64,000 nt of DNA from a virus: IMG/VR virus record IMGVR_UViG_3300029393_000004. One strand, written 5' to 3'. This document shows positions 610 to 62,977 of this stretch, piece by piece. A program made the translations under genes and the position numbers. How positions within the stretch are numbered: the first letter of the stretch is position 1; every line of letters begins with the position of its first letter. The notes under the pieces were generated by a model, which was given only the letters and a program-made list of their open reading frames with translations, did no database searches and had not been told where the DNA came from.

Positions 610-908
610 TCTAATTCTTATTATTTTGTGGCAATTTAAAACTGCCTATACTTTGCCTAAACCCATTTATTGAAAAAGCTTGTACAATAACCTTCGTCTG
701 ATGATTTAGCTCTTAATCTAAAGACGATAATTTTGAAAAAGTTATTGCCCCGATTGCTAATATCGTGAACTCCCGTTAGTGAGTTGTTTCGAAACTCGGT
801 ATTGCAGTCGGGGCAATTCTTTTATAATTCTGCCCCGAAGTTTGAAAAGTCCGTCTTCAACTTATTTGAACTTCATCAGAGAAGGGAGTGAACAACCCTT
901 CTCTTTTC

Positions 909-2783: not shown

Positions 2784-3633
2784 TTTCTACCTGTACTTTC
2801 TTGGGCCTGCCACGTTTTATATAGGTATTTGCCCACTTAACTTTTGCCCAAACGCCCTCATGGTTTTCGGAATAGTAATAAGTAGAAGAGCCGTTAATTG
2901 AGCCGTTCTGAAGATATTTTTCCCACGCTTCAATCTTGTAAAACTCAATGGGAGACAATTCGCTCAAAAGTTTTAATTCTTTCTTGTTTGCGAAAATGCA
3001 TGGCGTGCATCCAACACGAGCAAATCCCATTGCATACAGCGGATTGGCTTTAATTCCGCTATCTTCAATCTTTCTAAAAACATCTTCGACCGTCCAACTT
3101 AAAATCGGTCTCACATCCCAAGCTTGAGCACCCGTTTTTTTATTTTCGAGTCTCAACTCTCTTTCGGGATATTTTGCACGTTTTATAGATTCATCGGCTC
3201 TGACACCCGTCCAAACTTCTACAGATTCTCCATTTTCAAGAAACTGAGCAATAAAGTCATTTGCGGGTTTTTGTTTTAATTCTTTTGTACAAAATCTACT
3301 AGTAAAGCCAGGAAATCTACCGTTGACCAAGCAAAGGTCTAAAAATGCACTACCTGTCGGTCGGATGTGTTTTGCGATTTCAGGATGGTCTTTGAGTCTT
3401 TCCGCTTTTCTTTTCAGCTTTTCCGTACTGTCTAATTTCAGTCTTACGATTTTTGAAAAACCTTTTGATTGAAAATAGTCATCAAGGTATTCCAAGTATT
3501 CATAAGTTTTGTAGTGCTCGTTACCTGTATCGCAGAAAATGAAGATTACATTCTCGGGTCTATTCTGCTCCATTGCAAGCAGAGCAACGGCCGTGCTGTC
3601 TTTTCCGCCAGATACTGATATTATTTTTCTCAT
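2764..3633 (-). CDS. PAPS reductase family PP-loop protein (phosphoadenosine phosphosulfate reductase / DndC-like)
   Basis: SVSGGKDS PP-loop near the N-terminus. FCDTGNEHYKTYEYL resembles the CysH DTG...ETY region. 289 aa. Confidence 0.7.
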   Translation of the reverse strand: MRKIISVSGGKDSTAVALLAMEQNRPENVIFIFCDTGNEHYKTYEYLEYLDDYFQSKGFSKIVRLKLDSTEKLKRKAERLKDHPEIAKHIRPTGSAFLDLCLVNGRFPGFTSRFCTKELKQKPANDFIAQFLENGESVEVWTGVRADESIKRAKYPERELRLENKKTGAQAWDVRPILSWTVEDVFRKIEDSGIKANPLYAMGFARVGCTPCIFANKKELKLLSELSPIEFYKIEAWEKYLQNGSINGSSTYYYSENHEGVWAKVKWANTYIKRGRPKKVQVENGGTRL

Positions 3634-18553: not shown

Positions 18554-18629
18554 TTATTGTTGTTCTTTTGTACTGACTAATAGTAAGTAATTAACTACTT
18601 ATATTAGCATCTTTTTAAAATAAAATCAA

Positions 18630-21019: not shown

Positions 21020-21690
21020 TTTCCCGCTCCCGAAATCCAGTTATTTGAACCGACGTGGAAGAACTTCTTTCTGCGTTCGTTGTTTCGATCTGCCAAATCT
21101 TTACGCTTAATCGCTTCAGTATTGAACGCAAGCATTATCGGGTCTTCAAACGTGACGCCGAATTCAGTTGCATCGGGTTTTTCTTCGACAATCATGTCGA
21201 TAAACGTTTGATAAGCGAAGTCTCTGTGATCAACATAGAAAGCCTTACAAGCATCCAGTTTTGAACCGTTAGCGCTTCTAATCGTCCATCTGATCTCTGT
21301 TGATTTCTGCTGTGCAAGAAGTCCGAAACCGCCATGAGCTTCAAAGAGGTGATAAACCTCAAGACTTCCGAACTTGATAGCGCTTAAGAAGGTTGCTTTA
21401 TTCGCTTCAAAGAACCTATTCTCACGCACATACAGAGCTTCTAAGAACTTTGCATTCTCGAAGGGATACAACATGTCACCTTCGCTCAACAGATCAATAG
21501 CGATCTGTTTATGTCGTTCAAATTCGATTTCCGCTTTCTTAATGACGCTCGGTGTTATCGGCATATTAGAACCACGAATGCCGAAGATGATTGCTTCTAA
21601 CGCTTTCAAAAACTGTTCGTAAATGTTCGTCTGTCTTTGGGCGTAGAGGTCTGCGTCTTTAGGAAAATAGACACCAAGAATTTTAGTCAT
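21016..21690 (-). CDS. hypothetical virion morphogenesis protein
   Basis: 224-aa ORF, coupled to its neighbours. Confidence 0.35.
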   Translation of the reverse strand: MTKILGVYFPKDADLYAQRQTNIYEQFLKALEAIIFGIRGSNMPITPSVIKKAEIEFERHKQIAIDLLSEGDMLYPFENAKFLEALYVRENRFFEANKATFLSAIKFGSLEVYHLFEAHGGFGLLAQQKSTEIRWTIRSANGSKLDACKAFYVDHRDFAYQTFIDMIVEEKPDATEFGVTFEDPIMLAFNTEAIKRKDLADRNNERRKKFFHVGSNNWISGAGK

Positions 21691-33041: not shown

Positions 33042-33701
33042 TTATTTAATGTAGTTTTGAGCAAATTCAACAAAGGCTTCTGCACCAGCTTTAGACGTTT
33101 CGCCCTCGATTTTTGCCATGAAACGAGCAACAGTTCTTTCCTGCGCTCCCTTAATCGTTTTAAAGCCAAGAGCGTCAGCAATTCTCACTTCCGCTTCATC
33201 GGCTTCAATAATCTTTTCTTCGGTTTCCGTCGCTTTCTTTTCAATATCTGCGTAAAGGTCTGCTGAAACGGCTTCAGGCTTGAACTCGCTCAAGTCAGCT
33301 TCTAAGAAAGCCAATTCTTTCTTATCGAAAATTCCGCTGAGGTCTAAATCAATGCTTGCGATTTCGTTTTGCAATCCGACAGTATCGAAGTCGGAAATGG
33401 CAACTCGGTTGTCTGCGATACGAGCCGCTTTTATTTGTTCTTCGGTCAAGTCTCTGCGAACTAAAACTGGAACTTTCTTCAGTCCCAAAAAGCGGGATGC
33501 TTCAGTTCTGCCATGACCTTTGATAATTACGCCGTCTTTATCAACGACAATAGGCTGATCGAATCCGAACTGTTTGATACTTTGAGCGATCTTTTCAACC
33601 TGCTCTTCGTCATGTATCTTGACATTGTTCTCGTATGGCTTGACGGCTTCTATCGGCCACCATTCAATTTTCAATTCGCCATTCGTACTTGTAGAACTCA
33701 T
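33042..33701 (-). CDS. ParB-like nuclease domain protein
   Basis: ParB N-terminal pattern (IVVDKDGVIIKGHGRTEASRFLGLKKVPVLV). Confidence 0.7.
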   Translation of the reverse strand: MSSTSTNGELKIEWWPIEAVKPYENNVKIHDEEQVEKIAQSIKQFGFDQPIVVDKDGVIIKGHGRTEASRFLGLKKVPVLVRRDLTEEQIKAARIADNRVAISDFDTVGLQNEIASIDLDLSGIFDKKELAFLEADLSEFKPEAVSADLYADIEKKATETEEKIIEADEAEVRIADALGFKTIKGAQERTVARFMAKIEGETSKAGAEAFVEFAQNYIK

Positions 33702-33873
33702 TTTCCTTTTCTCGTTCTTCTATTTCTTCTGCGAAAAGTTTTCTTAATTCTTCTCGATCTTCTGACTCGTCGGGTTGTTCTAAGTCTTCAATTTCGAGTT
33801 CTCTTGGGATTCCAGGCGGCTTTATTCTGTCGCTCTTATTCTTCTTTTTTGACATTTGTGCAAAGGTAAACAA
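33664..33873 (-). CDS. small acidic ORF between the ParB genes (uncertain)
   Basis: 69-aa ORF overlapping both neighbours. May be spurious. Confidence 0.2.
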   Translation of the reverse strand: MFTFAQMSKKKNKSDRIKPPGIPRELEIEDLEQPDESEDREELRKLFAEEIEEREKENEFYKYEWRIEN

Positions 33874-34492
33874 GCGCGTCGCCAGCGTTCGTCAGAGAAT
33901 CGCTTTCTGTGTAGCCCTGCTCTTTCATAATCTTTTCGATTAGCTTTTGCACTTTTTCAGAATCTTCGATTGCAACTTTAAAACGCATCACGACGTGTGT
34001 TTGAGGCGGTCGTTCGGTTACGGGAGCGCTTTCTTCTAATTCTTCTTCATCAACTTCCAATTCATCTAAATTGATAGATGTGTTTGAAAACAGCGTCTCA
34101 AGGCTTTGATCAGAGTACGGCATATAAGACGAAAGATCAGATATGTCACCCAAGCCCGAAAGCAATTCGGATAGCTTGAAAGCGTCATCTTCGCCATAAC
34201 GTCCGTTATCAATGAGAGAGATTTTCTTGGCTTCTTCATCTGAAATCTCGCCAAGGTTAATAACTGCGACCTTATCTAATCCCAGCTCTTTGGCGGCTCT
34301 CCATCTATGTTCTCCGCCAATAATTTCAAAACCTTCATCTTGCTCACGCACAAGAATCGGTTTGAACTGACCGAATCGTCTCAGGCTCTCCTTTATTTTT
34401 TCTTCGTTGTCTGGAGAAACGACGTTTGTGTTGTAGGGATTAGGGGTCAGTTGATTGATTGGAACTTGTTCTATTTTTAATTCGTCCCGCAT
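33836..34492 (-). CDS. ParB-like nuclease domain protein (second copy)
   Basis: ILVREQDEGFEIIGGEHRWRAAKELGLDKVAVINL. Confidence 0.7.
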   Translation of the reverse strand: MRDELKIEQVPINQLTPNPYNTNVVSPDNEEKIKESLRRFGQFKPILVREQDEGFEIIGGEHRWRAAKELGLDKVAVINLGEISDEEAKKISLIDNGRYGEDDAFKLSELLSGLGDISDLSSYMPYSDQSLETLFSNTSINLDELEVDEEELEESAPVTERPPQTHVVMRFKVAIEDSEKVQKLIEKIMKEQGYTESDSLTNAGDALVYLCTNVKKEE

Positions 34493-34549
34493 TAAAACTT
34501 TTATAATAAGTAGTTAACTACTTCATTATTGTAGAGCAATGGATTAAAA

Positions 34550-37086: not shown

Positions 37087-37339
37087 TCAACATTTCAGTG
37101 CGATTCAAGGGATAAGGATAGGCCTCTGACCTCCCCGCCCCTATGGGATAAGGACGAGTTTGGGAAAGCTCAGGAAAATTGAGGGATGGATAGGGGGTTA
37201 TTCACAACCGGTTTTAGACTTCGATTGTAAATATTATCTATTTATTTATAAATCGGCTGCTGAAATAAATATTTTTATTTTATTTACAATAAATGAATTA
37301 AAATAATAAATAAAACAATTTAAATAAATTGCATAATTA

Positions 37340-37380
37340 AAAATAAACCGCTTGATTAACAAGCGGTTTATTTGTTTATT
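37340..37380. terminator. bidirectional terminator hairpin AAACCGCTTGATTAACAAGCGGTTT
   Basis: Perfect stem with A and T tracts on either side. Separates the plus-strand helicase island from the minus-strand small genes. Confidence 0.55.
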
Positions 37381-37384
37381 TATT

Positions 37385-37551
37385 TAGCAGGTCTTTTTTA
37401 GAATTTCATGCTCTAATAATCTGCATAACCATTTGTGAAACAATGCGTTAGGGTATGTAGTCGTATAAATAACCCAAATTAAACACCAAATAAAACCAAA
37501 AACTAAAGCACACAAATTAAGCAAAAGATTAAATATAAATTGTTCTGACAT
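37385..37551 (-). CDS. small hydrophobic protein (~55 aa)
   Basis: Manual translation gives MSEQFIFNLLLNLCALVFGFIWCLIWVIY... It is preceded by the same 29-bp element as gene 37590..38036 and followed by a hairpin terminator at about 37340-37380. Confidence 0.35.
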
Positions 37552-37589
37552 TTTCAGTACCTTTAAATGTAGTGATTTATTTAAAGAAT

Positions 37590-38036
37590 TTAACCGATAA
37601 ATCTTAATGCTTCAATAATAAACTTATTATATAGTTCTAAATGTCTAGGTATTGAAAGATCAAAAATCAATTGATCATAGTATTCATTAGAAACAATATC
37701 TATACAATTATCAGCATATACAGCAGTATTAAATATTTCCCAAATATTTACACCGTCACGGGTAATTTTTTCATTATCGTTCAATACCGCAAACTTGACT
37801 ACAGCAATTTTTGAATTTTCAAAGGGTAAATATTTAGATTCACCGTAAGCAAGCAGACCAGATAAACAATCAATGTTATAAACGACATTACAGCGTTGAA
37901 AAGAAATAGTATCGTCTATACAACCAAAATCACCTTCTAATAAAAATTCATGGTCTTTCGTGAATTTAGCAATTTCGGAGAATTGAGCTTTTAGTTCTTC
38001 TGATAATTTAATAGTTAATTCTTTATTGATTAACAT
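37590..38036 (-). CDS. hypothetical protein
   Basis: 148-aa ORF flanked by a 29-bp direct repeat. Confidence 0.5.
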   Translation of the reverse strand: MLINKELTIKLSEELKAQFSEIAKFTKDHEFLLEGDFGCIDDTISFQRCNVVYNIDCLSGLLAYGESKYLPFENSKIAVVKFAVLNDNEKITRDGVNIWEIFNTAVYADNCIDIVSNEYYDQLIFDLSIPRHLELYNKFIIEALRFIG

Positions 38037-38119
38037 GTTTGTACCTTTAAATGTAGTGATTTATTTAAAAGTCTATTTAATTGCACCCGTTTATTTGAAC
38101 GGGTGCAATTTATTTATAT

Positions 38120-38986
38120 TTAAGCGTTAGCAGAGATTAGTTTAAATAACTGCATAGCTTGCACGCTGTTAATTGTAATCGGTGTGTTTCTCTTGAATTT
38201 CTTAAACGTGATTAAACCGAGGTACATGCAAATCTTTTTGCATTGGGTAGTTTGGGCGCTAGCAGTGTCGAGAGTGTTATTAGTTGCTCCCTCTTTTGCG
38301 TATTGTGCTCGTGTCTTTTCGTCTATCTTAGCTTTTTTGTTAAGTGCACACATCATCAATTTAGCGCTAGCTAAATCGTGATGACCGTTGACCATAGCTA
38401 ATGTAAATTTGACAACGTAGTTAATTTTGCATTTTCTACCGAGTGCGAGAGCGTGTACAGTCTCAGCAAATTTATTCATTTCTTTTTGACTGACATAATA
38501 TTGATCACTTTCGTCAAGAATCGCTACATTTTTCGCGTACTGCATAGCGTAAGCATGACCATCAGAAAAACCGAGCAAACCAGCAAGAGTGACTAAATCT
38601 TGATAGACAATTGCGGGGGTCATGCTCATTGTGTCTCTTAAGATGTGCGTGTCTCTGTACCACCCTGTTTGAAGGTTATGCTCTTCTTCGTATGTTGCGG
38701 GGATGGGCATTCTGCGGGTTTTATAATAATTAACCCGTCTTTCACCGTAAGATTTAAACCAAAGATTTTTGAACTCTGTTGCTTTCGGGTCATTAGAACC
38801 CTTGACATTGAGAACGGGAGCAACTTTAGCGGGTGCGTTCTTTTTTGTCTGCTTAGTCTGTTTCGAAGCGACTTTCTTAGATTCTTCGTTGAAAACCTTG
38901 TTAGAACGAGAACGATTCTTTTGAGTCTGTTTGTCGAATTTAGCGATTTCGCTAGCAGTTGCGAATGTAAAAACGTTCTTTTTCAT
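38120..38986 (-). CDS. hypothetical basic protein (candidate DNA-binding or replication-associated)
   Basis: 288 aa with a Lys-rich N-terminus. Adjacent to a repeat-rich 780-bp noncoding region. Confidence 0.45.
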   Translation of the reverse strand: MKKNVFTFATASEIAKFDKQTQKNRSRSNKVFNEESKKVASKQTKQTKKNAPAKVAPVLNVKGSNDPKATEFKNLWFKSYGERRVNYYKTRRMPIPATYEEEHNLQTGWYRDTHILRDTMSMTPAIVYQDLVTLAGLLGFSDGHAYAMQYAKNVAILDESDQYYVSQKEMNKFAETVHALALGRKCKINYVVKFTLAMVNGHHDLASAKLMMCALNKKAKIDEKTRAQYAKEGATNNTLDTASAQTTQCKKICMYLGLITFKKFKRNTPITINSVQAMQLFKLISANA

Positions 38987-39781
38987 AATGATACCCTTAT
39001 AAAGTGTGTATTAAATTGTTTGTAGATTAGTAGTAGTGAATTACTATCTACACTTCATATTTTACGCTAATTTATATAAATGTCAACAAACACGAATAGG
39101 GATAAACCCTATTACGGGTAAATCCCTAAACCGAGAATGGGTGAGCGGGTCTAACTCCGAAAGGTCGCTAGTACACACTATAAGGGGATTAGAGCATGAC
39201 TGCTCTAATACTTTTAGAAACTAGCGGGAAACAGGTTAGATTTTCAGGTCACTACTCCCTAGCTCACTCATAAATTTTTACTCTTGTCAAACGAATTTTT
39301 CTAGGGATTTACCCTAGGGTGGTTATCAAAATCCCACCCGGTACCAGCATTTTAACTACCCCTCTGCTACCGCTTTTCATCACCCCTCGTTCACCCCCGC
39401 TTGCGGTGCCAACGTTTTTCCCACAAACCGAAGTTCCTTGGCACGGGCGAAGCGCGTGTGCGCTTGGAGGATAAAATTCGCTCGTCAATAGCGTGCCAAC
39501 ACTTTAACACAAAACGAATTCCTCGGCAAGAAGCGCTTCAAGCGATTTGCGTTCAGGATAAATTTCGCTGAGTCAATGCGCATTCCGAGGATTTTTGATG
39601 CTCAAGAAAGCACTTTCCAGCCCTTCTGAGCGTCTTTTGTGTTATGTCGTATATAGTTAGTTGGTTACTGCATAAAACTCCGTTATAGAACATTGGCAAC
39701 AGGTTTGTAGTCATTATTCATAAGTAAGTAACTACGCTATAATGCACATATCGAAACAACGAACTAATAGGGAGTTCAAAG

Positions 39782-40159
39782 ATGTACAAGATCGAAAAGC
39801 TCAGTAAATATGTTGATTGGGCCGAACCTGAAGATGAAGCTGTCGTATTCGACACTTTCGGTGAATTCATCAGTCAAGTAAAAGACGGTGAGATTTTCAA
39901 AGAATACTTCAAAGACGAAAGAGACGCCCCGTGTGCCCCGTGCGTTCTCAAGTTCGTACATAACGAAGAAGAAGCCCGCGAATTCGTCAAAAAAGCGATT
40001 GAAGCAGGTGATGAAGACTTCATAACCATACAACAATGCGCCGATAAAGATCATTATGACGGTGGTGCTTACGGTGTCTTAACTGGTGAATATGACGGTT
40101 ATGCAAGATTCAGTTTCACCAAACAGGGATATTTATTAGATAACCCGTTATTTGATTAA
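39782..40159 (+). CDS. hypothetical protein (paralog family with 40624..41031)
   Basis: GGGAG RBS, own promoter element and terminator. Shares the EAREFVKKAIE and GAYGVLTGEYDGYARFSFTKQGYLLD blocks with its paralog. Confidence 0.55.
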   Translation: MYKIEKLSKYVDWAEPEDEAVVFDTFGEFISQVKDGEIFKEYFKDERDAPCAPCVLKFVHNEEEAREFVKKAIEAGDEDFITIQQCADKDHYDGGAYGVLTGEYDGYARFSFTKQGYLLDNPLFD

Positions 40160-40623
40160 AGCAGTAGTACAGAATAACTCATAGTGTGTACCTTAAAACC
40201 CGCTATTCTTGTAGTGAAAAAGAAAGAATAGCGGGTTCTTTTTTTGCTCGCTTGAAGTTGTCTGACCGTCCACGATCCGCCTGCAAGCCACATATCTTGC
40301 CTTGAGCCAAGGGACTGCCTTCATAGCCAAGACTCCAGAGACTCCATTTGCCAAGTTTAAAAAGACTGTTTGCCAACACCGCAAAGACTCGTGCCAAGGA
40401 TTTTCTTTGCGTGCCAATGACAGTTGCCAACGCCACTAAGACTCTGTTGCCAGATGTGCAAAATTCGCGCCAAGGATAAATTTCGTGTGCCTAGGCAATC
40501 GTTTTGTTCTCTCAACTGTTTCCAAGGTTTCTGTCGGTTTGTTTTATTTCGTTGGAATGAGTTTGATTGAACCTTCCCGCCTACATTCAAACAGTTAATA
40601 TATAGTTATCGAAACAACGAACT

Positions 40624-41031
40624 ATGGGAGTTCACACTATGAAGATCGAAAAATTCAAGAAGTACGATCGCACCGCAAAAGATAATAATTATTGTGTTGT
40701 TCTCAGTAATTTTGAAGAGTTCAAACGTTTTTCAAAAGGTGAGACTGCTGAATTAGTCGAGTTCGTCGAAACTCATAGAAAAGAACTTGGTTTTTGGCTC
40801 TGGGGAAGTTTCCCCGTCGTTTTCACTTTTGTAAAGGGCGAAAAAGAAGCCCGTGAATTCGTCAAAAGAGCGATTGATGAAATTAACGACATTGAATATA
40901 CAACCATACAGTTGTATGCAAAAGAAAACGGTTACAAGGGTGCATACGAGGTCTTGAGCGGTAAAGCCGACGGTTACGCAAGAATCAGTTACAGCGATCA
41001 GGGCTATCTAATTGACTCAATCGAAGTTTAA
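40624..41031 (+). CDS. hypothetical protein (paralog of 39782..40159)
   Basis: GGGAG RBS, with a terminator hairpin at about 41040-41095. Confidence 0.55.
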   Translation: MGVHTMKIEKFKKYDRTAKDNNYCVVLSNFEEFKRFSKGETAELVEFVETHRKELGFWLWGSFPVVFTFVKGEKEAREFVKRAIDEINDIEYTTIQLYAKENGYKGAYEVLSGKADGYARISYSDQGYLIDSIEV

Positions 41032-42085
41032 GCAGTAAGAAACCCGCTGTATTCAGAGCTACCCTATTTAGCTCAAAGTACAGCGGGTTTGTTTTATCGA
41101 TATTGATTATGTTGGAACGCATACAAGATGTTGTATGTATGAAAATTCCTTTGATTTCAACGGCTTCCAACGAATTTGTATATCTATGAATAGTGCCTTG
41201 GCATTAAAACCCACCGAATTTGATTGCCAGAGTTTGAAGAACTGGTTATTTGAATGCCTTGAATTGAGAGACTCACCGCCTGCTAATAAAAGACCGCCTA
41301 CTCTACCGCTTGTTATAATGAAATTGCTTTTTTAAGCGAACACTCAAAAGCACAATCCGCTTAGATTTATGCGGGCGCTAAATCAGTTGTCATTTACTTG
41401 TAAGTGATAATTAAAAAGCCCCGCTATTGGTAGTAGCGGGGCTGATAATTCCATAAGTGCTTAAATGAGTACGAAGCATAAAAAGCACAGAAGAACTATA
41501 TCACACAAAGAACTAAAAGAGTATCGAAAGATGCTCGTTGCCTTACTTTGGTTTCTCAGTTTGGTAATGATAACGGTTCTTGATTTAGTTCAGATGTAAT
41601 TTTTCTTCCCTTCGGGATGTTGTGTCGTCTCGAAGGTTTTTCTTTTTGCGTTTTCTCTGGACGCAATGCGGCTAAGGCTAAGAATAATTAAATTTAATTC
41701 TTTATTCTCTATTTCTCTTTTTTCTTAAGGGTTTACACATCCGATTGGAAAACCTTGAAAAGAAAATGGTAAAAGTTCCCTTACCCATTTTTTCAACTTG
41801 GTACTACTAATCCAAGAAGCACTGTAATGGTTAAGAGACTTTCCATCTTCAACAGGTTACCGATCGGATCAACATCCGCTTAGTTCTAACCTCGCCAAAG
41901 AAAACGCAAAAGTTCCCAGAAAAGCCCTAAAGAAGGTGTGACTTTCGTCACAAAATATCATGAACATGACTGTATCACAAAATACTTCTTTTGTAAATAG
42001 TTGACTACTTATTTATTTGTGTATAATGAGAATTGTTGAAAGTGAATCGCTTTCGTCATTTTGTTTACATCGTTTGGAGAAAAAG

Positions 42086-42355
42086 ATGTTTGAAAAAGCC
42101 GCCAAAGAGTACATTCGTAAAAAGAATGCCATGACCGCTTCAATCAATTCTGAGATCAACAAAGAGCGTCAACCACGCCTTGAGAAACGTGCAGAAAGTC
42201 AAAGAATCAGAGCAAAAGCCAAAGCGTTATCTGAGTTGCGTGAAATGCTTTCTGCCTTGACCCAATCGGGCGCCTCTGAGTCTGACATCAAGACCTTGCG
42301 TAATAAGTGCGTAAGACTTTCCAATGAGCTTGCAGATAAAGCCATCGCCTCATAG
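42086..42355 (+). CDS. hypothetical helical protein
   Basis: Start at MFEKAAKEY with a GGAGAAAAAG RBS. Upstream TTGACT/TATAAT-like promoter at about 42001-42027. Terminator at about 42362-42415. Confidence 0.45.
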   Translation: MFEKAAKEYIRKKNAMTASINSEINKERQPRLEKRAESQRIRAKAKALSELREMLSALTQSGASESDIKTLRNKCVRLSNELADKAIAS

Positions 42356-42492
42356 CTTGCTCATCTGACATTCAACCTCTCAGAAACGCTCAAAATCGCT
42401 TTCTGAGAGGTTTTTCTTTTCAACGCAGTTCGGTACTCAAAAAACAAAAGAAAAGCGCTCAGAAGAGCGCTACAAAGGTTTTAGAAGGTGTT

Positions 42493-42843
42493 TTAAGCAA
42501 TATCGCAGAGAAACCTAAACCGATATGGTTCAATCGGTAGCTCTAACCATTGTTCCTCCGTTTCTATTCCCCTGTACGTTCTGCCATGGAATAATCGCAT
42601 TCTGAAGATAAACGCCATGACATGAAGAATTTGTCTGCCAGTCTTTCCTTCTGCCAACCTGTGAACAATTCCATCTTTCGTATAGCAAGCCAAGAAGTCA
42701 CCGCGAGATTCCAAGAAAGCGGTTCCTTCGTCATCAAACACAAGGTTGACATTCTTTCCAAAGCCGAAGGGAGAGACGCCAACGCTGGTCAATCTTTGTC
42801 GGAAGGGTTTGGATTCTTCATTTTCGAGCGAGAAATAAAGCAT
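42493..42843 (-). CDS. hypothetical protein
   Basis: 116-aa ORF. Confidence 0.4.
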   Translation of the reverse strand: MLYFSLENEESKPFRQRLTSVGVSPFGFGKNVNLVFDDEGTAFLESRGDFLACYTKDGIVHRLAEGKTGRQILHVMAFIFRMRLFHGRTYRGIETEEQWLELPIEPYRFRFLCDIA

Positions 42844-42919
42844 TTCATAATACCTTTTCTTAAGTAATCACTTATTTATTTTACGCTCGAAAGCCCGTGA
42901 TTGCTCACGGGCTGAAATT

Positions 42920-43078
42920 TTGTTTATTCTTCTTCGCTTGATTCTTCTTCGCCCCATTCTTCAAGGTCTTTAGAGATTTGTTCGTCAATCTCTGTCAATT
43001 CTTCTAAAGATTCAAGCATTTCTAAATCATCAAAATCGCAACCGAAGAACTCAGCTAATTGATCATAATCATCAAACA
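42920..43078 (-). CDS. small acidic protein (~52 aa)
   Basis: Manual translation gives MFDDYDQLAEFFGCDFDDLEMLESLEELTEIDEQ... It is preceded by the conserved promoter/leader element and followed by a hairpin at about 42885-42910. Confidence 0.35.
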
Positions 43079-43266
43079 TTTTCAAACTCCCTATTAGTTC
43101 GTTGTTTAGATATATGTATATTACTCTCGTGTTTATTGGCGGGGAGTTTGATTAAAGTTAGTGCCAAGATTTGCACTGTGACTAATTGAGTGCCAAGGAA
43201 TTAAGTTTTTAAATCTTAGGAATTGAATCAGTCAGCGTTTGACCCGCATCCCTGCGGGTCTTTTGT

Positions 43267-43542
43267 TTAGAGAAAAGCGGGAATTTCTCTCATATCCCAA
43301 TCGTGCTTACCGATGTAGGGGTTATTGGTTGCGTAGCGGTCTGAGAATGATTTGATATGACGGGCCGTTGTGCGTGACCATGCAGACGACATCTTGTAAA
43401 GTGTACCGTTTTTGATGTAAGCAACTTTTGTCGAGTAAGAAACCAAAATTTTGAGACCGCTTTCAAGCTCTTGAACCTTTGCTTTATGGTAAAAACTCTT
43501 GTGACCGTCGTACTCAGAAGGTTGTAATTCGTAAGTCTTCAT
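43267..43542 (-). CDS. hypothetical protein
   Basis: Own promoter/leader copy and terminator. Confidence 0.5.
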   Translation of the reverse strand: MKTYELQPSEYDGHKSFYHKAKVQELESGLKILVSYSTKVAYIKNGTLYKMSSAWSRTTARHIKSFSDRYATNNPYIGKHDWDMREIPAFL

Positions 43543-43615
43543 TTTTGAACTCCCTCGTTCATTGTTTCGATATAGACATATTACCCGTTTGAGTATTGGC
43601 GGGGAGAGTTAACTT
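43543..43615 (-). promoter_or_regulatory. conserved phage promoter/5'-leader element (consensus, gene-sense: CTCCCCGCCAATA-N16-19-TAATAT..TATATCGAAACAACGAAC...GGGAGTTCAAAAATG)
   Basis: One of at least 10 copies found by eye. The others lie at about 43081-43150, 44113-44175, 44987-45050, 45636-45700, 46306-46375, 48879-48945 and 55658-55725 (minus sense), and at 39745-39781 and 40570-40623 (plus sense). Each sits directly 5' of a small gene. Confidence 0.6.
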
Positions 43616-43728
43616 AATTACAGCCAACGTTTGAGAAGTTATGAAGTTAGAGCCAAGGAATTTTGTTTCTAATTCCTAGGAATTATTGATGTAAAAACAA
43701 ACCCCGCAGGGTTGCGGGGCGTTGTGTG

Positions 43729-44112
43729 CTATACGCACACATAATCGTTATAGAAGTCAAACAAGAAATTCTTGAATTGTTGTTTTTCTTCTTCGTTTTC
43801 TAAGTCAAACATGAAATTGAAGAATTCGACATCTTTGGGTACTGAGATATGTAATCTATCCCAATCGGCGCCCTTGTCATTAAAATCGTTGTCGATTGAA
43901 TCGGTTGACTCGCAAACTTTAACCCAGACACCGTACTCGGTTTTTGTGATGCTTTTATCTGCGTTAAGAAATTGAACGTCATCAGCAAGAAAAATCAACT
44001 CAGCAGTGAAATCACAACTTCTCAACTGATTGTAGTCGTTCAGACAACCGTGATTTTTTTGATGACGACCTGCGAATTTTGCGTATTTTTTAACTAAGTC
44101 TTTCATTTGCAC
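43729..44112 (-). CDS. hypothetical protein
   Basis: Own promoter/leader copy. Terminator at about 43695-43725. Confidence 0.5.
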   Translation of the reverse strand: MQMKDLVKKYAKFAGRHQKNHGCLNDYNQLRSCDFTAELIFLADDVQFLNADKSITKTEYGVWVKVCESTDSIDNDFNDKGADWDRLHISVPKDVEFFNFMFDLENEEEKQQFKNFLFDFYNDYVCV

Positions 44113-44417
44113 TCCCTTTAGTGCGTTGTTTCAATATATGTATATTACTCTCATGGTTATTGGCGGGGAGATTGTTTTCAGTTAGTTCCAACGTTGTAGC
44201 GTTTTCACTTCCAATAATGTTGCGTTTTTACTTCCGAGTTTGTAGCGCCAAGGAATTGATTATTCTTTTTCGTTGGATTTCGTTTGCTTAATGTCAAGGC
44301 AATGCGTGCGCATTCGGCTCTGGATATAAATTTCGGCCAACAAATAGCTCTGTTGTTTCCAAGGATTTAATTACGCAAAACAAAACCCGCCAATCTTCTT
44401 TAGCGGGTCTCTTTTCG

Positions 44418-44660
44418 TTAATCAAGAGGTTTGTAATAGCACCTGTAGCACGTACCCCAAACACCTAAGATGTCATCACGGTAAAACTCCCCTTCATCAT
44501 CAGGGTCAACCGTTGTGAGTACGTTATTGTGTCGCATGAATTCCCGTACTGTTTCGGCTTCTTCGGGATAATCATAATCAAGCCCTGTGAAGTCATTGTT
44601 AATTAAAGCGGTCATGTGAGCTTCTAGAAAATAACCGATTAAATAATCATCTAAGTTCAT
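44418..44660 (-). CDS. hypothetical protein
   Basis: 80 aa, in a bicistron with 44672..44986. Confidence 0.45.
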   Translation of the reverse strand: MNLDDYLIGYFLEAHMTALINNDFTGLDYDYPEEAETVREFMRHNNVLTTVDPDDEGEFYRDDILGVWGTCYRCYYKPLD

Positions 44661-44671
44661 AATTCACCCCT

Positions 44672-44986
44672 TTACTGTTCTGCATCATCAACCAACTTAG
44701 CAACTAACCAGTTGAGGTAAAGCGCTGTATAAATTCTTTTCGCTTTGTCGGTACACGTGATAATGTCTTTGAAAGACAAACCGATTTCATAAAGAAACTG
44801 ATGACCGCTATCAAGCACTTCATTTTCGACGTAAGCGAGAATCTTTTGATTGAATTCTTCGTTATCCCAAAACTTGAGTAATTCTTCAGTCGTGAAGACT
44901 TTCTCAGCACTTTCGTTTATTAACCTGAAAAGGTTATTACAGCAGTCATGAAGATTAACTGTTGCTTCAATCGTTATAACAATCAT
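44672..44986 (-). CDS. hypothetical protein
   Basis: Promoter/leader copy upstream. Confidence 0.45.
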   Translation of the reverse strand: MIVITIEATVNLHDCCNNLFRLINESAEKVFTTEELLKFWDNEEFNQKILAYVENEVLDSGHQFLYEIGLSFKDIITCTDKAKRIYTALYLNWLVAKLVDDAEQ

Positions 44987-45242
44987 TTTTAACTCCCGTT
45001 AAGTTTGTTTCGATGATTAAAGTTTACGCTACTGATTATTGGCGGGGAGTTAATTTATTTTTTAATCCAATGATTTAGAAAGCCATAGCCTAGGATTTAG
45101 AATTGTTTTTATTGGAATTAGTTTATTGGATTTAATTTATTGGAATTAAATAATTAAATGCCTTGGCAACAAATACCGTATCAATTAAATGCCTACAATT
45201 CATTGATTAAAAAAGCGGGATTGCTCCCGCTCTTCGGTATGG

Positions 45243-45635
45243 TTATTCTTCAACCATATCAATCATTCTACTGATTACATCTTCTACATAAACCCACACG
45301 TAATTGTTAATTGCGCAGTCTGTTTTTTCAATGATTTCATAGATTTCAAGTCTCATTGTTTGTTGAAAATCCGCCCACCCAAGCTCGGCGCAAAGATTTT
45401 CAACAAATTCATCAACTTGATCTTCAAACTTTTGATAAAACTCTTTTGTGTCAGAGTAGTAAATCAACGGCCCGCAAGCTCCCGAAGCGCAACCGTGTTC
45501 ATAAGTTTCATTAAGCATTTCAGCTAAAGACTGCAATTCATCTTCTGAACTATCTTTATCGCAACCAAAGAAGTCGAACAGTTTTGTAAATTCATCTTCT
45601 TTAAATAACTTGCGAATATTTTTACTGTTTAACAT
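45243..45635 (-). CDS. hypothetical acidic protein
   Basis: Promoter/leader copy upstream. Confidence 0.45.
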   Translation of the reverse strand: MLNSKNIRKLFKEDEFTKLFDFFGCDKDSSEDELQSLAEMLNETYEHGCASGACGPLIYYSDTKEFYQKFEDQVDEFVENLCAELGWADFQQTMRLEIYEIIEKTDCAINNYVWVYVEDVISRMIDMVEE

Positions 45636-45876
45636 TTTTGAACTCCCTCGTTCGTTGTTTCGTTATGTATATATTAGTCTTTTGATTATTGGCGGGAGCT
45701 GTAAATATTTTCGATTCCAATGTTTTAAACCTACTAATTTATTTCTTAGGAATTAAATTATTTTCATTGTTGGAAATAGATTTTTGTTTCCTAGGCTATA
45801 AATAAATTCAAATAAAAATTCCAAAGAAAGCTGCTTAAAAAATAACCCCGCATTTCTGCGGGGCTTGTCTTGTCGG

Positions 45877-46305
45877 TTAGAGTTTCGCTATTTCGGTTTG
45901 AAGTTTCTCAATGAACTCATTGATGAGTGGTATAACGAACCTGATGAAATCGGGCCGATACATCATGTAGCTCAAAGAATTCAGAGCTTCATCACCCATT
46001 TCGTCTTCTGAGTAGTTATAAGTCATACGCTTATCGGGGAAGTAAATCAGCTCAAATCGCTTGCATTCTTCATCAGAGAAGAGTTTGACTGCGTACCAGC
46101 AAACGGCACTACCTTCTTCATTAGTTTCGGGGTCTTTTCTGTACAGATACAGGTCAACGGGAAGGTGTTCTTCGTAAACTTCATCTTCTTTGTTCACACC
46201 GAACGGGGTATGAAGTTCAACACGCAAATTACCGAAGGTTTTGGTAACGCTTAAGTCACCGATTGTTTCAGAAAGAAGGTTCGCAACGTTTTCAAGTTTC
46301 GTCAT
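45877..46305 (-). CDS. hypothetical protein
   Basis: Start at the internal MTKLENVANLL, right after a promoter/leader copy. The track ORF extends artificially through the promoter to 46446. Confidence 0.5.
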   Translation of the reverse strand: MTKLENVANLLSETIGDLSVTKTFGNLRVELHTPFGVNKEDEVYEEHLPVDLYLYRKDPETNEEGSAVCWYAVKLFSDEECKRFELIYFPDKRMTYNYSEDEMGDEALNSLSYMMYRPDFIRFVIPLINEFIEKLQTEIAKL

Positions 46306-46891
46306 TTTTAAACTCCCATAGTGTGTTTGTTTCGACAATTCACAGTTTACGCTTACGAACGTAGGCGGGGAGATTTCTTTAATTCGATTCCAATAACTAT
46401 AAAATATTTTCCCGTTGTTCCTAGGAATTAGGAGAAATTTTCCCATTATCCTCTTATCAACTATGGGAAAAATTCCCGTTTTGTTACAAATTCTGCGCCA
46501 AGGATATATTTCTTCTTATTTTAGCCACGTGTTTTCCAGGTTTTTCGTTTGTTCTCCCTCCAAGGCACACGTACTTCTGCTCTAAGGATAAATCCCGCCA
46601 AGGAATAGCTTTCAGATTCTTCAATTCTCCGCCATCTCTTCTCTGCCAAGGCGTCTTTATCTTTCCTAGGCGCTCTCACATGACGCTTCAAGGATAAATC
46701 TCGTCCGGATATGCCCTCCCTTTCTTCTTTCCACTGCTTTATTCAGCCAAAAATCCTTGCTGTTATTTTTTCGTAGATGATTTTCTTCATCTCATAGAGG
46801 GTCTGACTAAGCAACTCTCCAAGAGCCTCAAGACTTCTTCATTTTCGTCTTTTTCAAAAATTTTCGCTCACTGCTTTGTCAGACCGCCCTT

Positions 46892-47149
46892 TTAAATCGT
46901 ATTTTCAAGTGCTTTCATGACGCTGTTGACGATATTACCCATGTAATTGGTAATTTCTTGACGAGTTTCTTCATTTACCTCCGACATAACCTTCAAATAG
47001 TCTAATGTGAGGTAAATATCATTGTCTGTGTTCCATTCTTTGGTCAGCACATACTCCCTGTTTTCTTCATCAAATACTTTGATTGTGATTCTCGGAGACT
47101 GTAAATTTGGTATAACCATGCGGTCAAACTGCATTCTCGTAATCTTCAT
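46892..47149 (-). CDS. hypothetical protein
   Basis: 85-aa ORF. Confidence 0.4.
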   Translation of the reverse strand: MKITRMQFDRMVIPNLQSPRITIKVFDEENREYVLTKEWNTDNDIYLTLDYLKVMSEVNEETRQEITNYMGNIVNSVMKALENTI

Positions 47150-47369
47150 CGTCGTAACCTCTCATAAAATTGATAAATTCATTATATTTCAATCACTTTT
47201 TGGAAGGTTACTGTATAAATAAACTGTCCAAATCTTAAAATTGATGATTTTCTTAAACCCAATAACGGCGGGGCTTAGAGCTTGGTCAGACCCTCTGTGA
47301 GATGCTCAGTTTTCAAGGGATAAGATTACTGTATAAATACAGTGGTTTTACTGTATAAATCATTTCCGA

Positions 47370-47530
47370 GAGATTCTAAGTCAGTGCCTAGGAATTAAAG
47401 ACTCAGTGCCTTGGAATCAATGACTGCCTAGAAAAAGAAGACTCCGAATGTTGCCTATGAGAGAAAGACTCATTGCCTTGGAAATAGAGACTCATTGCCT
47501 TGGATTGAGAGACTGATTGATGTGAAAATA
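47370..47530. repeat. about seven direct repeats of AGACTCAnTGCCTTGGAAT-like 20-mers
   Basis: aaagactcagtgccttggaatc / aagactcattgccttggaaat / agagactcattgccttggattg, plus degenerate copies. Confidence 0.55.
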
Positions 47531-47599
47531 TTGGAATTAGCTTAGAATTTCACAATGTGGAAAATAGTGTCAGATTGATTGAGTTATGAATTTGCGTTA

Positions 47600-47775
47600 T
47601 CAATCCCTCCCCCTATTTCTGCCTTACACCCATTGATTCTTTCCTCTACTTCTTTCTTATCCTGTTGTATCTCTCTCTTCTCTGTTTTCTTACACCCATT
47701 GACTGATTTCTCTGTTTTGTTTTACACCTATTGATTCTTTCTTCTGTTCTCTCTTACATCTATTGATTGTCTGTC
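47600..47775. repeat. four direct repeats of CTTACACCCATTGATTC-like iterons
   Basis: Copies at about 47626, 47690, 47727 and 47752 within a 750-bp ORF-free region. Confidence 0.55.
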
Positions 47776-47901
47776 TATATACGTATTACGTCTGTACGTC
47801 TTTCTTCGGCTTGTATTCGTTCTCTATTAAGCGATTGCCTATGTCGAAAGTAGTTTGACAGGGCTGTGCGTTATCTTCGTTTACAGCCCTTTATTTGCGT
47901 T

Positions 47902-48228
47902 TTAGCAATTTTTTAAATCATCGACTAAAGAATCATATTGTTCTTTAGTGATATTTCCGCATTCAAGAGAATAGTCGAGATGTGTCTGACAATCTTCTTT
48001 AGCATCAAAGAAGTCGCCTCTATTGAACGTTTGACTTGAAATAAGTTCGTTTAATTCATCAGAGTTATTGAGCGGGACTTCTTTTCCGCCATCATCTTCA
48101 AGAATTGCGTAATGCTGATTGTGCTTTTCAATAAAGTGCAGACAAAGCGAAGTTTGCCAAAGTTTCTTTTGTGACGTAATCAGGTGTGCCATTAGGTTTG
48201 ATATAAACCGCATATCCAGTATGAGCAA
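47902..48228 (-). CDS. hypothetical protein
   Basis: 108-aa ORF. Confidence 0.4.
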   Translation of the reverse strand: MLILDMRFISNLMAHLITSQKKLWQTSLCLHFIEKHNQHYAILEDDGGKEVPLNNSDELNELISSQTFNRGDFFDAKEDCQTHLDYSLECGNITKEQYDSLVDDLKNC

Positions 48229-48371
48229 CGGCTTGTTCGATTTCTTTTCTAAGTTCTGTCATTTTGATGACCTTTTAAAAATTCATTATTTGATTATAGG
48301 CAAGCTATCAAGGCGTTTATGAGAGCTGTATTCATTCGTTGTTTACAGCCCTTCTATGTTATTTCTCTGTA

Positions 48372-48878
48372 TTAGCAATATCTCTTGATATGTCTCTTTG
48401 AAAACCAAATGTCGGGGTAAATTTCCGCTCTTTCGACTGGTTCAATCTTAATTTCTTCTTTAATTTTGTAAAGGTTATTTGTCTTCAACGCCAACTGAAT
48501 AAGATCGGTGAAGATTGATCTCATGTAACTGAGATAACAATCAATCATGTGTTTTTTAGTTCTGTCTTTGTCTTTAGGGAAGTATTTGTTCATAAAAAGT
48601 TCAAGACCCGAAGGTTCGTTCGAACGTAAATTCTTATCTTCTTCGTAAACCTCATTCAGTTTTTCGTACACATATTTATCTTCTAACCAAACCGCAACTG
48701 CAAAATCAGTGAGCGTTCTAAGATCAGTGTAGAAATCAATCCAATCGCAAAGACCTCCGATAGATGCGCCTAACGGATAAAGCATTTCATCTGTTAGCTT
48801 GCCATCGGTCAGGTATCCATTAAGCAAAAACTGACTGATTATGTAATCGCCCCTTTTAGCATCTATTAGTACCGTCAT
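48372..48878 (-). CDS. hypothetical protein
   Basis: Start at the internal MTVLIDAK, after a promoter/leader copy. The track ORF runs on to 48956. Confidence 0.5.
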   Translation of the reverse strand: MTVLIDAKRGDYIISQFLLNGYLTDGKLTDEMLYPLGASIGGLCDWIDFYTDLRTLTDFAVAVWLEDKYVYEKLNEVYEEDKNLRSNEPSGLELFMNKYFPKDKDRTKKHMIDCYLSYMRSIFTDLIQLALKTNNLYKIKEEIKIEPVERAEIYPDIWFSKRHIKRYC

Positions 48879-49627
48879 TTTGTAATTCCCTTGTTGAGTT
48901 TGTTTCGATATAGACATAATACCGAGATTGTTACTGGCGGGTGAGTAGTGTTTCAATCGTAGCCAAGAGGTGAATTTTTGGAAAAGTCAATAAAATAATT
49001 ATATCCTTTAAAATCAATTAGTTAGCATAATAATCGTTAATTGACGTGATGTTCTTCGGGTAAATCCTAATGCTTTAATTCATTTATAAGTAGTTATTTA
49101 CTTAATATTTGCTTATAATGAGAAACAAATAAGAAAAAGATTGCTCTTTTAAAAATAGATCTCCTTAAAGTTAGCTGATAAAGCGAGAGTTGGTTTTATG
49201 GTGGTTTTATCACTCGAAATTATCTCAAATCTGTGGAACAGACCAACTCTCGCATCATTTTATAGGATGTAAGTGATTACTTATGTAAAACAAGGATTGT
49301 CGATCAACTTCGAGAGGTTAGACAATCTGCGACTTGGTACTTAATGGCTTAGAAGCGTGACCGAGAAGTAGTAGGAAATAAGAAGCTCTGACAACGGACG
49401 CTTGTTAGAGATTGAAGATTTCCTCAAGGTTTTCAGATTCATAACCTGAGTGAACGCGGTGCAATTCCGCCCTTCTATTCCCAAATCGCATATTTTTTGA
49501 TAGTTAGAACGGGGTTGAGCAGAACCTGATGAAGTTTCAGTTGTTGTTAAAAGAATGTACTTCAATGAGCTTCCACAAGTGAGAATTCCTTTGAGCTTGT
49601 GGGTTCTGCTTCAATCTTTTAAATGAT

Positions 49628-54918: not shown

Positions 54919-54924
54919 AAATTA

Positions 54925-54955
54925 GCCCCGCAAAAGCGGGGCTTTCGTTTCTTTA
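54925..54955. terminator. bidirectional rho-independent terminator between convergent operons
   Basis: AGCCCCGCAAAAGCGGGGCT hairpin flanked by T and A runs. Confidence 0.6.
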
Positions 54956-55657
54956 GATTCCCATCTTCTGATAGATCAGCGGGAGCAGGTTTGATTCAGG
55001 GTCAGGAGTTAAACGATGACCGACCTTAACAGCGATACCGAGCTTAGGGAGCATATTCATGACTTGAGCCGACTGAGCGTTTGCAGTTCCAGGACTGTAG
55101 GGTTTCTTCAGCAGTGCTTGATAGAGGTTCCCTTTTTTACCACCGTCAAGAAAACCGTCTTGCTTGAAAGTATCAAAAGCAATTTTGAGTACTGTGTTAA
55201 GACTGCAACCGCCCGTAAGGAATGTGTAAAGCTGAATAACCTTTTCGCAAACCTTTTTCTGAGAGAAGACCGTCTTGTCGTCTAAGAGCTTTTCAAGTTC
55301 CCGTACTTCTTTTACCTGTTCTTCTTCATCAATGTCTTTTGTGAGCGCCAGCACGTCTTTCGAGTTCTTGATGCGTTGTTCCAACATCTTCCCGTAACCG
55401 TCTTTGTAAGTAACGCGGGGTTCGGAGACTTTCTTTTCTTTCGGAGCTTTTGCAACTTTTTTCGCTTTAGCGGGTTTTGCGGTCTTTTCTTGCTTTTCGA
55501 CTTTTTCAACCTTGTCTAAAGCGATGAGCTTTTGTTCAACGAAGTCTTTTGTGACGACTTCAGGGATGCCGACAGGTTCGTCAATGACGATGACATCTTC
55601 AGTGTTCAATGTGCTCATAAGTTCATCTAAATCTTCAGCTATTTGTTTCTCGTTCAT
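54953..55657 (-). CDS. hypothetical protein
   Basis: 234 aa. Promoter/leader copy upstream. Convergent terminator at about 54925-54955. Confidence 0.45.
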   Translation of the reverse strand: MNEKQIAEDLDELMSTLNTEDVIVIDEPVGIPEVVTKDFVEQKLIALDKVEKVEKQEKTAKPAKAKKVAKAPKEKKVSEPRVTYKDGYGKMLEQRIKNSKDVLALTKDIDEEEQVKEVRELEKLLDDKTVFSQKKVCEKVIQLYTFLTGGCSLNTVLKIAFDTFKQDGFLDGGKKGNLYQALLKKPYSPGTANAQSAQVMNMLPKLGIAVKVGHRLTPDPESNLLPLIYQKMGI

Positions 55658-55781
55658 GTTGTACCTCTTTGATTACAAAAGAATTTCTATATGCTTATTG
55701 TAGAGGTGTGAATATTGGCGGGGAGACTCACCTTATCTTCATTCCAAGCATGAAAAAGCCCCGAAAGTTCGGGGCTGATTT

Positions 55782-57253: not shown

Positions 57254-57344
57254 TTTGTTACCTTCTTAAGTAGTTACTTACTTAAGTATTATTGTATTCT
57301 ACTCTATGTAGGCGGGTTGCGCCCACATAGAATTAAGTAGTTAG

Positions 57345-62947: not shown

Positions 62948-62977
62948 TATCGTAAGTAGTTAACTACTTACGATATG
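62948..62977. promoter_or_regulatory. 30-bp perfect palindrome ATATCGTAAGTAGTTAACTACTTACGATAT (operator candidate) overlapping a TATAAT box
   Basis: Core AAGTAGTTAACTACTT recurs at about 34509-34524 (divergent ParB/helicase promoters), 18583-18600, 57275-57295, 39727-39742, 49089-49105 and 42855-42880. Confidence 0.5.

Follow-up and report, generated by a model that had tools for sequence, protein, structure and literature searches.

A repeated putative promoter-leader element precedes small, exchangeable genes in an uncultured gut siphovirus lineage

Analysis of a 64,000-nucleotide stretch of viral DNA (IMG/VR record IMGVR_UViG_3300029393_000004, referred to here as the window) confirmed that it contains a repeated element whose frequency is far above chance; there are nine full copies, one hybrid copy, and one decayed relic, all of them intergenic and pointing at the gene that they precede. 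The element is supported as a combined promoter and 5' leader that would drive small, mostly monocistronic genes because of its position, orientation, and fixed spacing, because the blocks rather than the spacers are conserved among about 168 copies in related phages, and because real coding genes lie downstream. We propose, with a probability of roughly 0.6, that each copy is the head of a portable expression cassette, in which a phage-specific promoter is fused to a standard 5' untranslated leader.

The element is about 90 nucleotides long. Numbered from the presumed transcription start, it consists of TTGGMA (-56 to -51), a 17-nucleotide spacer, the box (C/T)CCCGCC(A/T)A(T/C)A (-34 to -23, with its CCCGCC core at -33 to -28), a 10-nucleotide spacer, a TAnnnT hexamer (-12 to -7), 6 to 7 nucleotides, and ATCGAAACAA (+1 to +10), which is followed by 5 to 16 variable nucleotides, GGGAG, 7 to 9 nucleotides, and ATG. 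An initial annotation of this DNA had described an element of about 65 bp in at least 10 copies, with 16 to 19 nucleotides between the upstream box and an A/T-rich block; the repeated unit is upheld, but it is longer and extends to TTGGMA, and the 3' end of the box is separated from the -10 hexamer by exactly 10 nucleotides in every copy. The CTCCCCGCCAATA form of the box occurs five times exactly in the window, and nine occurrences with two or fewer mismatches were observed versus 0.46 expected; CGAAACAACGAAC was observed 12 times versus 3.0 expected. The fixed-geometry pattern TTGG-N20-CCCGCC-N14-TAnnnT gave seven exact matches versus 0.00 expected in 100 shuffles, and these shuffle controls rule out chance or low-complexity repeats as an explanation. 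A profile built from the copies recovered the nine full copies in a search of the window (E = 1e-15 to 7e-25), together with two weaker matches, a partial copy at 39731-39784 (E = 2.6e-7) and, at 767-847, a degenerate copy (E = 0.02). The start codons behind the full copies are at 43079, 43542, 44106, 44986, 45635, 46305, 48878, and 55657 on the minus strand and at 40639 on the plus strand. Three of these revise earlier assignments, 43078 becoming 43079, while the GTG at 44112 and the ATG at 40624 both fall inside the ribosome-binding site, the true starts being 44106 and 40639; the other starts of the full copies were retained.

Pattern scans of viral and metagenome collections found the element only in one cluster of close relatives, phages of 75 to 99% nucleotide identity from human-stool metagenomes, which together provided the approximately 168 copies and 56 distinct leaders; each relative carries 8 to 11 copies in the same region. 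The four conserved blocks hold 1.6 to 1.8 bits per position (parts of the blocks are fixed by the parsing pattern, and the leader parsing pattern fits 156 of 168 copies) versus 0.7 to 0.85 bits in the spacers, whose lengths are invariant; TTGGMA and the box stand exactly 17 bp apart in each of the 56 unique copies that could be parsed. A more distant relative, of 72% amino acid identity (IMGVR_UViG_2889436542_000003; L164, 17235-17292), has TTGGAT-N18-TTCCGCCAATA-N10-TATTAA at a site syntenic with the 55657 copy, where the surrounding DNA has diverged; it is the one recognizable promoter copy in the stretch examined. The element was not found in GenBank phages and is absent from 185,579 representative bacterial genomes, in which only three single, chance-level matches were seen, and a literature search with the box sequence returned only unrelated primer matches.

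The copies are noncoding, because orthologous leaders contain indels and because the codon-position signal starts at the downstream ATG. Among the relatives, the A-run that links the ribosome-binding site to the ATG varies by 1 to 4 nucleotides between orthologous leaders, and from the proposed ATG onward substitutions between orthologues fall mainly at the third codon position (e.g., 5/23/162 and 1/1/34), with no internal stops. These two signals rule out a location of the copies inside longer open reading frames (45877-46446 and 48372-48956), and the possibility raised earlier that the motif lies within longer real genes was thereby found not to hold. No function could be assigned to the cassette proteins apart from one DUF7222 match. 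Most of the downstream genes are mutually unrelated; those starting at 39782 and 40639 are paralogues (family D9).

Our results suggest a two-part promoter, in which the box, 10 bp, and TAnnnT act together and the box replaces a -35 element; the grounds are the -10 pattern, the position of the leader, the absence of a -35 element, and the natural variants. The -10 hexamers are TAATAT, TAAACT, TACTAT, TATTAT, TACAAT, and TATAAT, and since T1, A2, and T6 are invariant and the position is fixed in all parsed copies, the description of this block as -10-like was borne out. The hexamer 17 bp upstream from it, at the -35 position, is CTCCCC, and a sigma-70 consensus scan called none of the element's promoters; this agrees with the previous remark that the box, at -34 to -23 and a fixed 10 bp from TAnnnT, does not resemble a sigma-70 -35 element. 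Near-consensus sigma-70 promoters are present elsewhere in the phage, at 39086-39059 (TTGACA-16-TAAAAT) and, as read from the sequence, at 42001-42027 (TTGACT-15-TATAAT). The conserved leader starts 6 to 7 nucleotides past TAnnnT, where a transcription start is expected.

Natural variants separate the promoter and leader modules. In the copy at 39782 the box is missing, a consensus TATAAT is preceded by TTCATA at a distance of 17 bp, and the leader is unchanged; the copy at 55657 and one in a relative (L015, 5357) keep TTGGMA, the box, the 10-bp spacer, and the -10 hexamer in front of an unrelated leader; and the relic at 767-847 has lost the -10 hexamer and has no gene. The earlier listing of 39782 and 55657 as copies thus holds for a part of the element in each, the first being without the CCCGCC box and the second having an unrelated leader.

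In the mechanism that we propose, the host RNA polymerase with its primary sigma factor would recognize TAnnnT as the -10 element, and the normal -35 contact would be replaced by a factor, whose existence we infer, reading the (C/T)CCCGCC(A/T)A(T/C)A box, which is centered near -30; TTGGMA, to which CGCCAA within the box (-30 to -25) is an inverted half-site, would probably provide a second contact. Transcription would begin at the A of ATCGAAACAA and produce an A/C-rich leader of 30 to 35 nucleotides ending in GGGAG, followed by an A-rich spacer of 7 to 9 nucleotides and the AUG. As the sequence shows, most cassettes are monocistronic and insulated by a hairpin terminator. The box and its fixed 10 bp to TAnnnT would fit a dedicated activator or a remodeled sigma factor.

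The spacing data can also be read in another way. If TTGGMA were a -35 element and the box (CCCGCCAATA) a -10 element, 17 bp apart, an alternative sigma factor would start transcription inside the 10-nucleotide spacer, and the segment from TAATAT to ATCGAAACAA would be part of a leader of about 55 nucleotides or a second tandem promoter. The exact 17-bp spacing in 56 of 56 copies favors this arrangement, as do the agreement of TTGGCA with TTGACA at five of six positions and the C/G-rich -10 elements of group-3 sigma factors (sigma-32, CCCCATNT; sigma-28, GCCGATAA). It leaves unexplained, however, the invariant 10-nucleotide spacer, the T1/A2/T6 pattern, and the 6- to 7-nucleotide distance to the leader, and the 39782 copy, which lacks the box, retains TAnnnT and the leader and has gained a better -10 and a better -35. 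The spacings also misfit the sigma-28 and sigma-32 consensus sequences, no sigma gene was found among the window open reading frames and about 25 kb of flanks, and, being absent from the 185,579 bacterial genomes, the element is not a regulon motif of any host among them. We consider such a promoter quite improbable. Against the familiar consensus sequences, readings of TTGGMA and the box as sigma-54 (TGGCAC-N5-TTGC), sigma-28, sigma-32, or ECF/HrpL sites were rejected because the spacings or required bases misfit. For a promoter of a single-subunit (T7-like) RNA polymerase, the window open reading frames and about 25 kb of flanks yielded no RNA polymerase domain, and the -10 hexamer and the 6- to 7-nucleotide spacing vary as in sigma-70 promoters, unlike the rigid unit of about 23 bp in T7-like promoters.

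Several points weigh against the two-part promoter fused to a leader. Pfam and PHROG scans of about 75 window open reading frames and about 25 kb of flanks, which together cover all but about 14 kb of the approximately 104-kb genome, found no sigma-70-family, MotA, AsiA, or RNA polymerase domains; the geometry of the box is in keeping with the phage-specific sigma factor or activator suggested by the initial annotation, but no sigma, MotA, or AsiA gene accompanies it in this part of the genome. Both the start site and the promoter activity are deduced from sequence patterns, and the sigma-70 rules applied are borrowed from Escherichia coli and may not be those of the host, the source being a stool metagenome. 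Promoter function alone does not explain the strict conservation of +1 to +10. Finally, the 17 nucleotides between TTGGMA and the box equal a classical -35/-10 spacer, which leaves open a different promoter reading. A 288-amino-acid gene at 38120-38986 was considered as a candidate activator and dropped, as a search found no homologue in any viral contig, although some relatives (L054) align across the region. It lies in an AT-rich island (37100-39000), behind the strongest consensus sigma-70 promoter of the region (TTGACA-16-TAAAAT); two small genes in the island are each preceded by a copy of an exact 29-nucleotide duplicate (37557-37585 and 38041-38069), and the island may be a recent insertion.

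The conservation of ATCGAAACAA, 84 to 100% per position, raises the question of control at the RNA level, and a role of the leader as a ribosome standby site or enhancer, an operator, or a nuclease target is possible. It could be mainly such control that the leader serves, as the RegA-like translational operator considered by the initial annotation, a nuclease target, or a small hairpin partly covering the ribosome-binding site, and this would be compatible with promoter function. About 45 of the 56 distinct leaders fold into a hairpin of 4 to 7 bp, in which GAAC(U) pairs with (A)GUUC around GGGA, with a mean energy of -3.2 versus -1.7 kcal/mol in shuffles, and in two lineages GAAC/GTTC is changed to GCAC/GTGC and TAAC/GTTA. 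RNAalifold, however, gave no consensus structure for the leader, the mean z-score is only -1.0, paired cells amount to 69% versus 64% in shuffles with covariation coming from one or two lineages, essentially from one, and there are several uncompensated exceptions to the pairing. Only tRNAs passed the gathering threshold in Rfam, with nothing credible at E ≤ 1 in 42.9 to 46.45 kb, and the domain scans detected no RegA-like family. The invariant part lies at the predicted +1 to +10, 20 to 25 nucleotides upstream from the AUG and not over the start codon or the ribosome-binding site, and its conservation could reflect homogenization by recombination. A hairpin at the ribosome-binding site is thus weakly supported at best, and we regard a leader devoted mainly to RNA-level control as conceivable but doubtful.

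Because about 90 bp are common to 10 or more sites per genome, the element also appears to act as a substrate for homologous recombination, and comparison among related phages indicates that accessory genes have been exchanged, added, or deleted in this way. The lineage pairs 19 types of downstream gene with 13 promoter-core variants; four different promoter variants stand in front of the 43542-type gene, and one core variant precedes four different genes. In one relative (L019), a 43542-type gene (97% identical) follows the entire promoter of the 44986 cassette, the crossover lying inside the leader, within GGGAGTT/AAAAATG. The clustering of the copies and the paralogy of the 39782 and 40639 genes might instead suggest remnants of a recent duplication, or the ends of small mobile elements, with no regulatory role. 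We give this very little credence: the spacers are near-random while blocks and spacings are kept, most downstream genes are mutually unrelated, every copy faces its gene, and there are neither terminal inverted repeats nor target-site duplications. The TTGGMA element, the phased palindromes described below, and the evidence for a recombination module had been missed by the initial annotation.

Ten of the individual copies lie between 39.7 and 48.9 kb and at 55.7 kb. On the minus strand, the full element at 43077-43167 (TTGGCA, 43162-43167; box, 43134-43146; TAATAT, 43118-43123; leader ATCTAAACAA, 43102-43111; then GGGAG and the ATG at 43079) would drive a 51-amino-acid gene (42924-43079), and that at 43540-43627 (TTGGCT, CTCCCCGCCAATA, TAATAT, and ATCGAAACAA) a 91-amino-acid gene (43267-43542). 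The copy at 44104-44191, with the leader variant CGCAC...GTGC, precedes a 125-amino-acid gene (43729-44106); the one at 44984-45070, with a TAAACT -10 hexamer, precedes a bicistronic unit (44672-44986 and 44418-44660); and the one at 45633-45720, with box GCTCCCGCCAATA, precedes the 130-amino-acid DUF7222 gene (45243-45635). Further upstream on the same strand are the copies at 46303-46393 (box CTCCCCGCCTACG, -10 TAAACT, leader GTCGAAACAA; predicted to drive a 142-amino-acid gene, 45877-46305), at 48876-48966 (more diverged, with box CTCACCCGCCAGTA and -10 TATTAT; 168-amino-acid gene, 48372-48878), and at 55655-55747 (TTGGAA, box, -10 TACAAT, and the unrelated leader; 234-amino-acid gene, 54953-55657). 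The plus strand carries a full element at 40552-40641 (box CTTCCCGCCTACA) in front of a 130-amino-acid gene (40639-41031), as well as the hybrid copy at 39692-39784, in which TTGGCA stands at the usual distance, TAAGTAAGTAACTAC, half of a second palindrome family, takes the place of the CCCGCC box, and the leader is normal; with its consensus TATAAT and TTCATA, this copy would drive a 125-amino-acid paralogue of the 40639 gene. A degenerate copy without an ATG had been noted at about 765 to 830, and the relic found at 767-847 (minus) matches that description: after a hairpin comes a box that carries a 3-nucleotide insertion (CCCCGACTGCAATA), the -10 region is deleted, and the leader and GGGAG are retained with no ATG or gene behind them; the relic is conserved in relatives.

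Two further sequences resemble parts of the element. A 34-nucleotide partial copy of the segment from the -10 hexamer to the leader (AAGCGTAAAGATTTGGCAGATCGAAACAACGAAC, 21073-21106, minus), including an exact 15-mer, lies inside a structural-gene coding region about 55 nucleotides upstream from the next start codon and could be an internal promoter, a relic, or chance. At 47902-48262 (minus), a degenerate box-like sequence (GCTTGCCTATAATCAAATAATG) precedes two open reading frames, 48262 to about 48130 and 48228 to 47902, that overlap in different frames and may represent a frameshifted gene, a programmed frameshift, or a pseudogene.

It had been stated that each small gene ends in its own terminator. 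As read from the sequence, a canonical hairpin with a T-run behind it closes 8 of 10 cassettes, for example the GC-rich hairpin and T-run at 43701-43720 (minus); others are at 42892-42913, 44382-44411, about 45215-45240, 45844-45865, and 54924-54943, and on the plus strand at about 40190-40245 and 41035-41095. The statement does not extend to the hairpin after 43267, where the T-run is on the opposite strand, or to those after 48372 and 47902, which have none, and one cassette is bicistronic (44986 to 44418), most others being monocistronic. The terminator hairpins lie 60 to 150 bp upstream from the next promoter and are separate from it.

Upstream from several promoters we found a second layer of sites. 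In the example at 43186-43230 (minus), TTCCTTGGCA lies at -89 to -80, with TTCCTAAGAT some 22 bp farther from the promoter; comparable TKCCWWGGMA palindromes precede the 43542, 44106, 46305, and 40639 promoters, and in several copies full 10-bp palindromes are phased at about -85 and at -107/-115. The palindromes are concentrated in 39400-47600 (e.g., 43668-43685, 40240-40530, and 47381-47519), often embedded in 22-bp iterons (AAGACTCAnTGCCWWGGAA), with 32-bp repeats nearby at 47623-47768, and this region is probably a replication origin or partition region. Candidate binders are two adjacent proteins with ParB N-terminal domains (33836-34492 and 33042-33701, minus), the first of which aligns with Noc over both the N-terminal CTP (cytidine triphosphate)-binding domain and the DNA-binding domain. 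The Noc site is ATTTCCCGGGAAAT (PMC7383237), which resembles the phage AATTCCTAGGAATT. We treat a ParB/KorB-like regulatory layer upstream from the promoters as a lead rather than a result.

These sites raise the possibility that the box, TTGGMA, and TKCCWWGGMA are all operators for a silencer or repressor, such as the phage ParB/Noc-like proteins acting in the manner of KorB, and that the promoter is constitutive and needs only the -10 element. The box sequence CGCCAA is the inverse of the TTGGCG/TTGGMA half-site, and 41 of the 53 CCWWGGMW sites in the window fall within the 40- to 48-kb cassette and origin region; the phasing of the palindromes, the two-domain alignment with Noc, and the likeness of the sites point the same way. 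A promoter with neither a -35 nor an extended -10 element and a -10 match of four to five of six would, however, be weak by E. coli rules, CCCGCC, the most conserved part of the box, lies outside the palindrome consensus, and the 55657 and 48878 copies have no full palindrome nearby, so that we consider this unlikely. KorB/ParB operators and Noc sites are likewise short palindromes repeated near promoters and an origin-like region, with a ParB/Noc-like DNA-binding-domain protein; the likeness concerns TKCCWWGGMA and excludes the CCCGCC core, the palindrome measures 10 bp here versus 13 to 16 bp, and binding here is putative.

A separate 18-bp palindrome, TAAGTAGTTAACTACTTA, occurs at 18584-18601, 34507-34524, 41994-42011, 49087-49104, 57267-57284, and 62953-62970 (six matches at three or fewer mismatches versus 0 expected), with weaker copies at 42861-42878 and 49266-49287. 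It is always intergenic, abuts or overlaps the -10 or -35 of replication and other genes, is conserved in the relative of 72% identity, and in the 39782 copy takes the place of the CCCGCC box. Its appearance is that of an operator for a dimeric regulator.

The closest parallel in geometry is with the T4 middle promoters, which have a -10 element and a MotA box centered at -30, 12 ± 1 bp from the -10, with the consensus (a/t)(a/t)(a/t)TGCTTtA (PMC2988021). Shared with these are a TAnnnT -10 element, a phage-specific box of about 10 to 13 bp near -30 at a fixed short distance with no -35, and many copies in front of nonstructural genes (PMC2988021); the likeness is one of geometry only and is relative to the presumed start site here. 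The box differs (CCCGCCAATA versus the T4 consensus), no MotA or AsiA homologue was found in the scanned open reading frames and flanks, the fixed TTGGMA and the conserved +1 to +10 are additional here, and the phage is a siphovirus of an unrelated lineage. We take the element as a genuine, lineage-specific promoter-leader cassette whose promoter would work like T4 middle promoters but does not belong to them.

The PeSL cassettes of T4-like phages, repeated promoter units through which genes are shuffled, are likewise composite and intergenic and stand, in a variable part of the genome, before genes whose function is unknown (PMC2839356, PMC4122927). Both systems insulate single genes by a promoter and a terminator, and in both, close relatives exchange genes through recombination between the copies. 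PeSLs, however, have consensus sigma-70 -35 and -10 elements with a stem-loop embedded in the promoter, whereas here the box would replace the -35, the hairpin is separate and 60 to 150 bp upstream, and the conserved unit continues through the leader to the ribosome-binding site. The start-associated sequences of Cluster K mycobacteriophages are 13-bp translation-proximal motifs with no fixed promoter attached; they too are short conserved sequences of the ribosome-binding-site region, repeated just upstream from many starts in one phage lineage, but the conserved part here would take in an entire promoter as well as the transcript's 5' end. The element thus appears to combine two known ideas, a middle-type promoter with a -30 box and a mobile regulatory cassette.

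The window represents most of a siphovirus genome of about 104 kb, and the source contigs are from human-stool metagenomes of a cholera cohort. Structural genes in the window encode the portal, large terminase, major head protein, a 2016-amino-acid tape measure, and a lambda-J-like central fiber, alongside genes for a helicase, the two ParB-like proteins, thymidylate synthase, dihydrofolate reductase, and four tRNAs; the flanks, whose DNA was recovered via identical proteins, encode a DnaE-type polymerase, gp32, RecA, SbcCD, CobST, lysozyme, and NrdD/G. No DNA-level similarity was found in a search of the GenBank phage collection, and the best matches of the portal protein, in SSU5-like, Rhizobium, and Pseudomonas phages, are at most 50% identical. 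A PAPS-reductase-family gene lies within the tail module (2764-3633, minus), and beyond the tail fibers are a radical-SAM gene and an anaerobic ribonucleotide reductase, NrdD (L129, 17345-20358). These three genes point to an anaerobic host and perhaps to modification of DNA or nucleotides.

Our combined results define, for this lineage of uncultured gut phages with genomes of about 104 kb, a promoter class that is complete and can be tested. We tentatively speculate that the CCCGCCAATA box and TTGGMA are read by a new phage activator or sigma-remodeling system, analogous to MotA/AsiA but unrelated in sequence and maybe coupled to ParB/Noc-like CTP-dependent clamps at TKCCWWGGMA, which would switch on an array of exchangeable cassettes whose invariant mRNA 5' end might provide a common posttranscriptional handle. 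The element marks about 19 exchangeable accessory genes across the lineage as one coregulated set; such sets typically comprise host-takeover or antidefense genes. The findings would extend both the replacement of the -35 element by a -30 box and the recombination of regulatory cassettes beyond the T4-like myoviruses, and, if the factor reading the box is identified, it would represent a second, independent solution to redirecting the host RNA polymerase.

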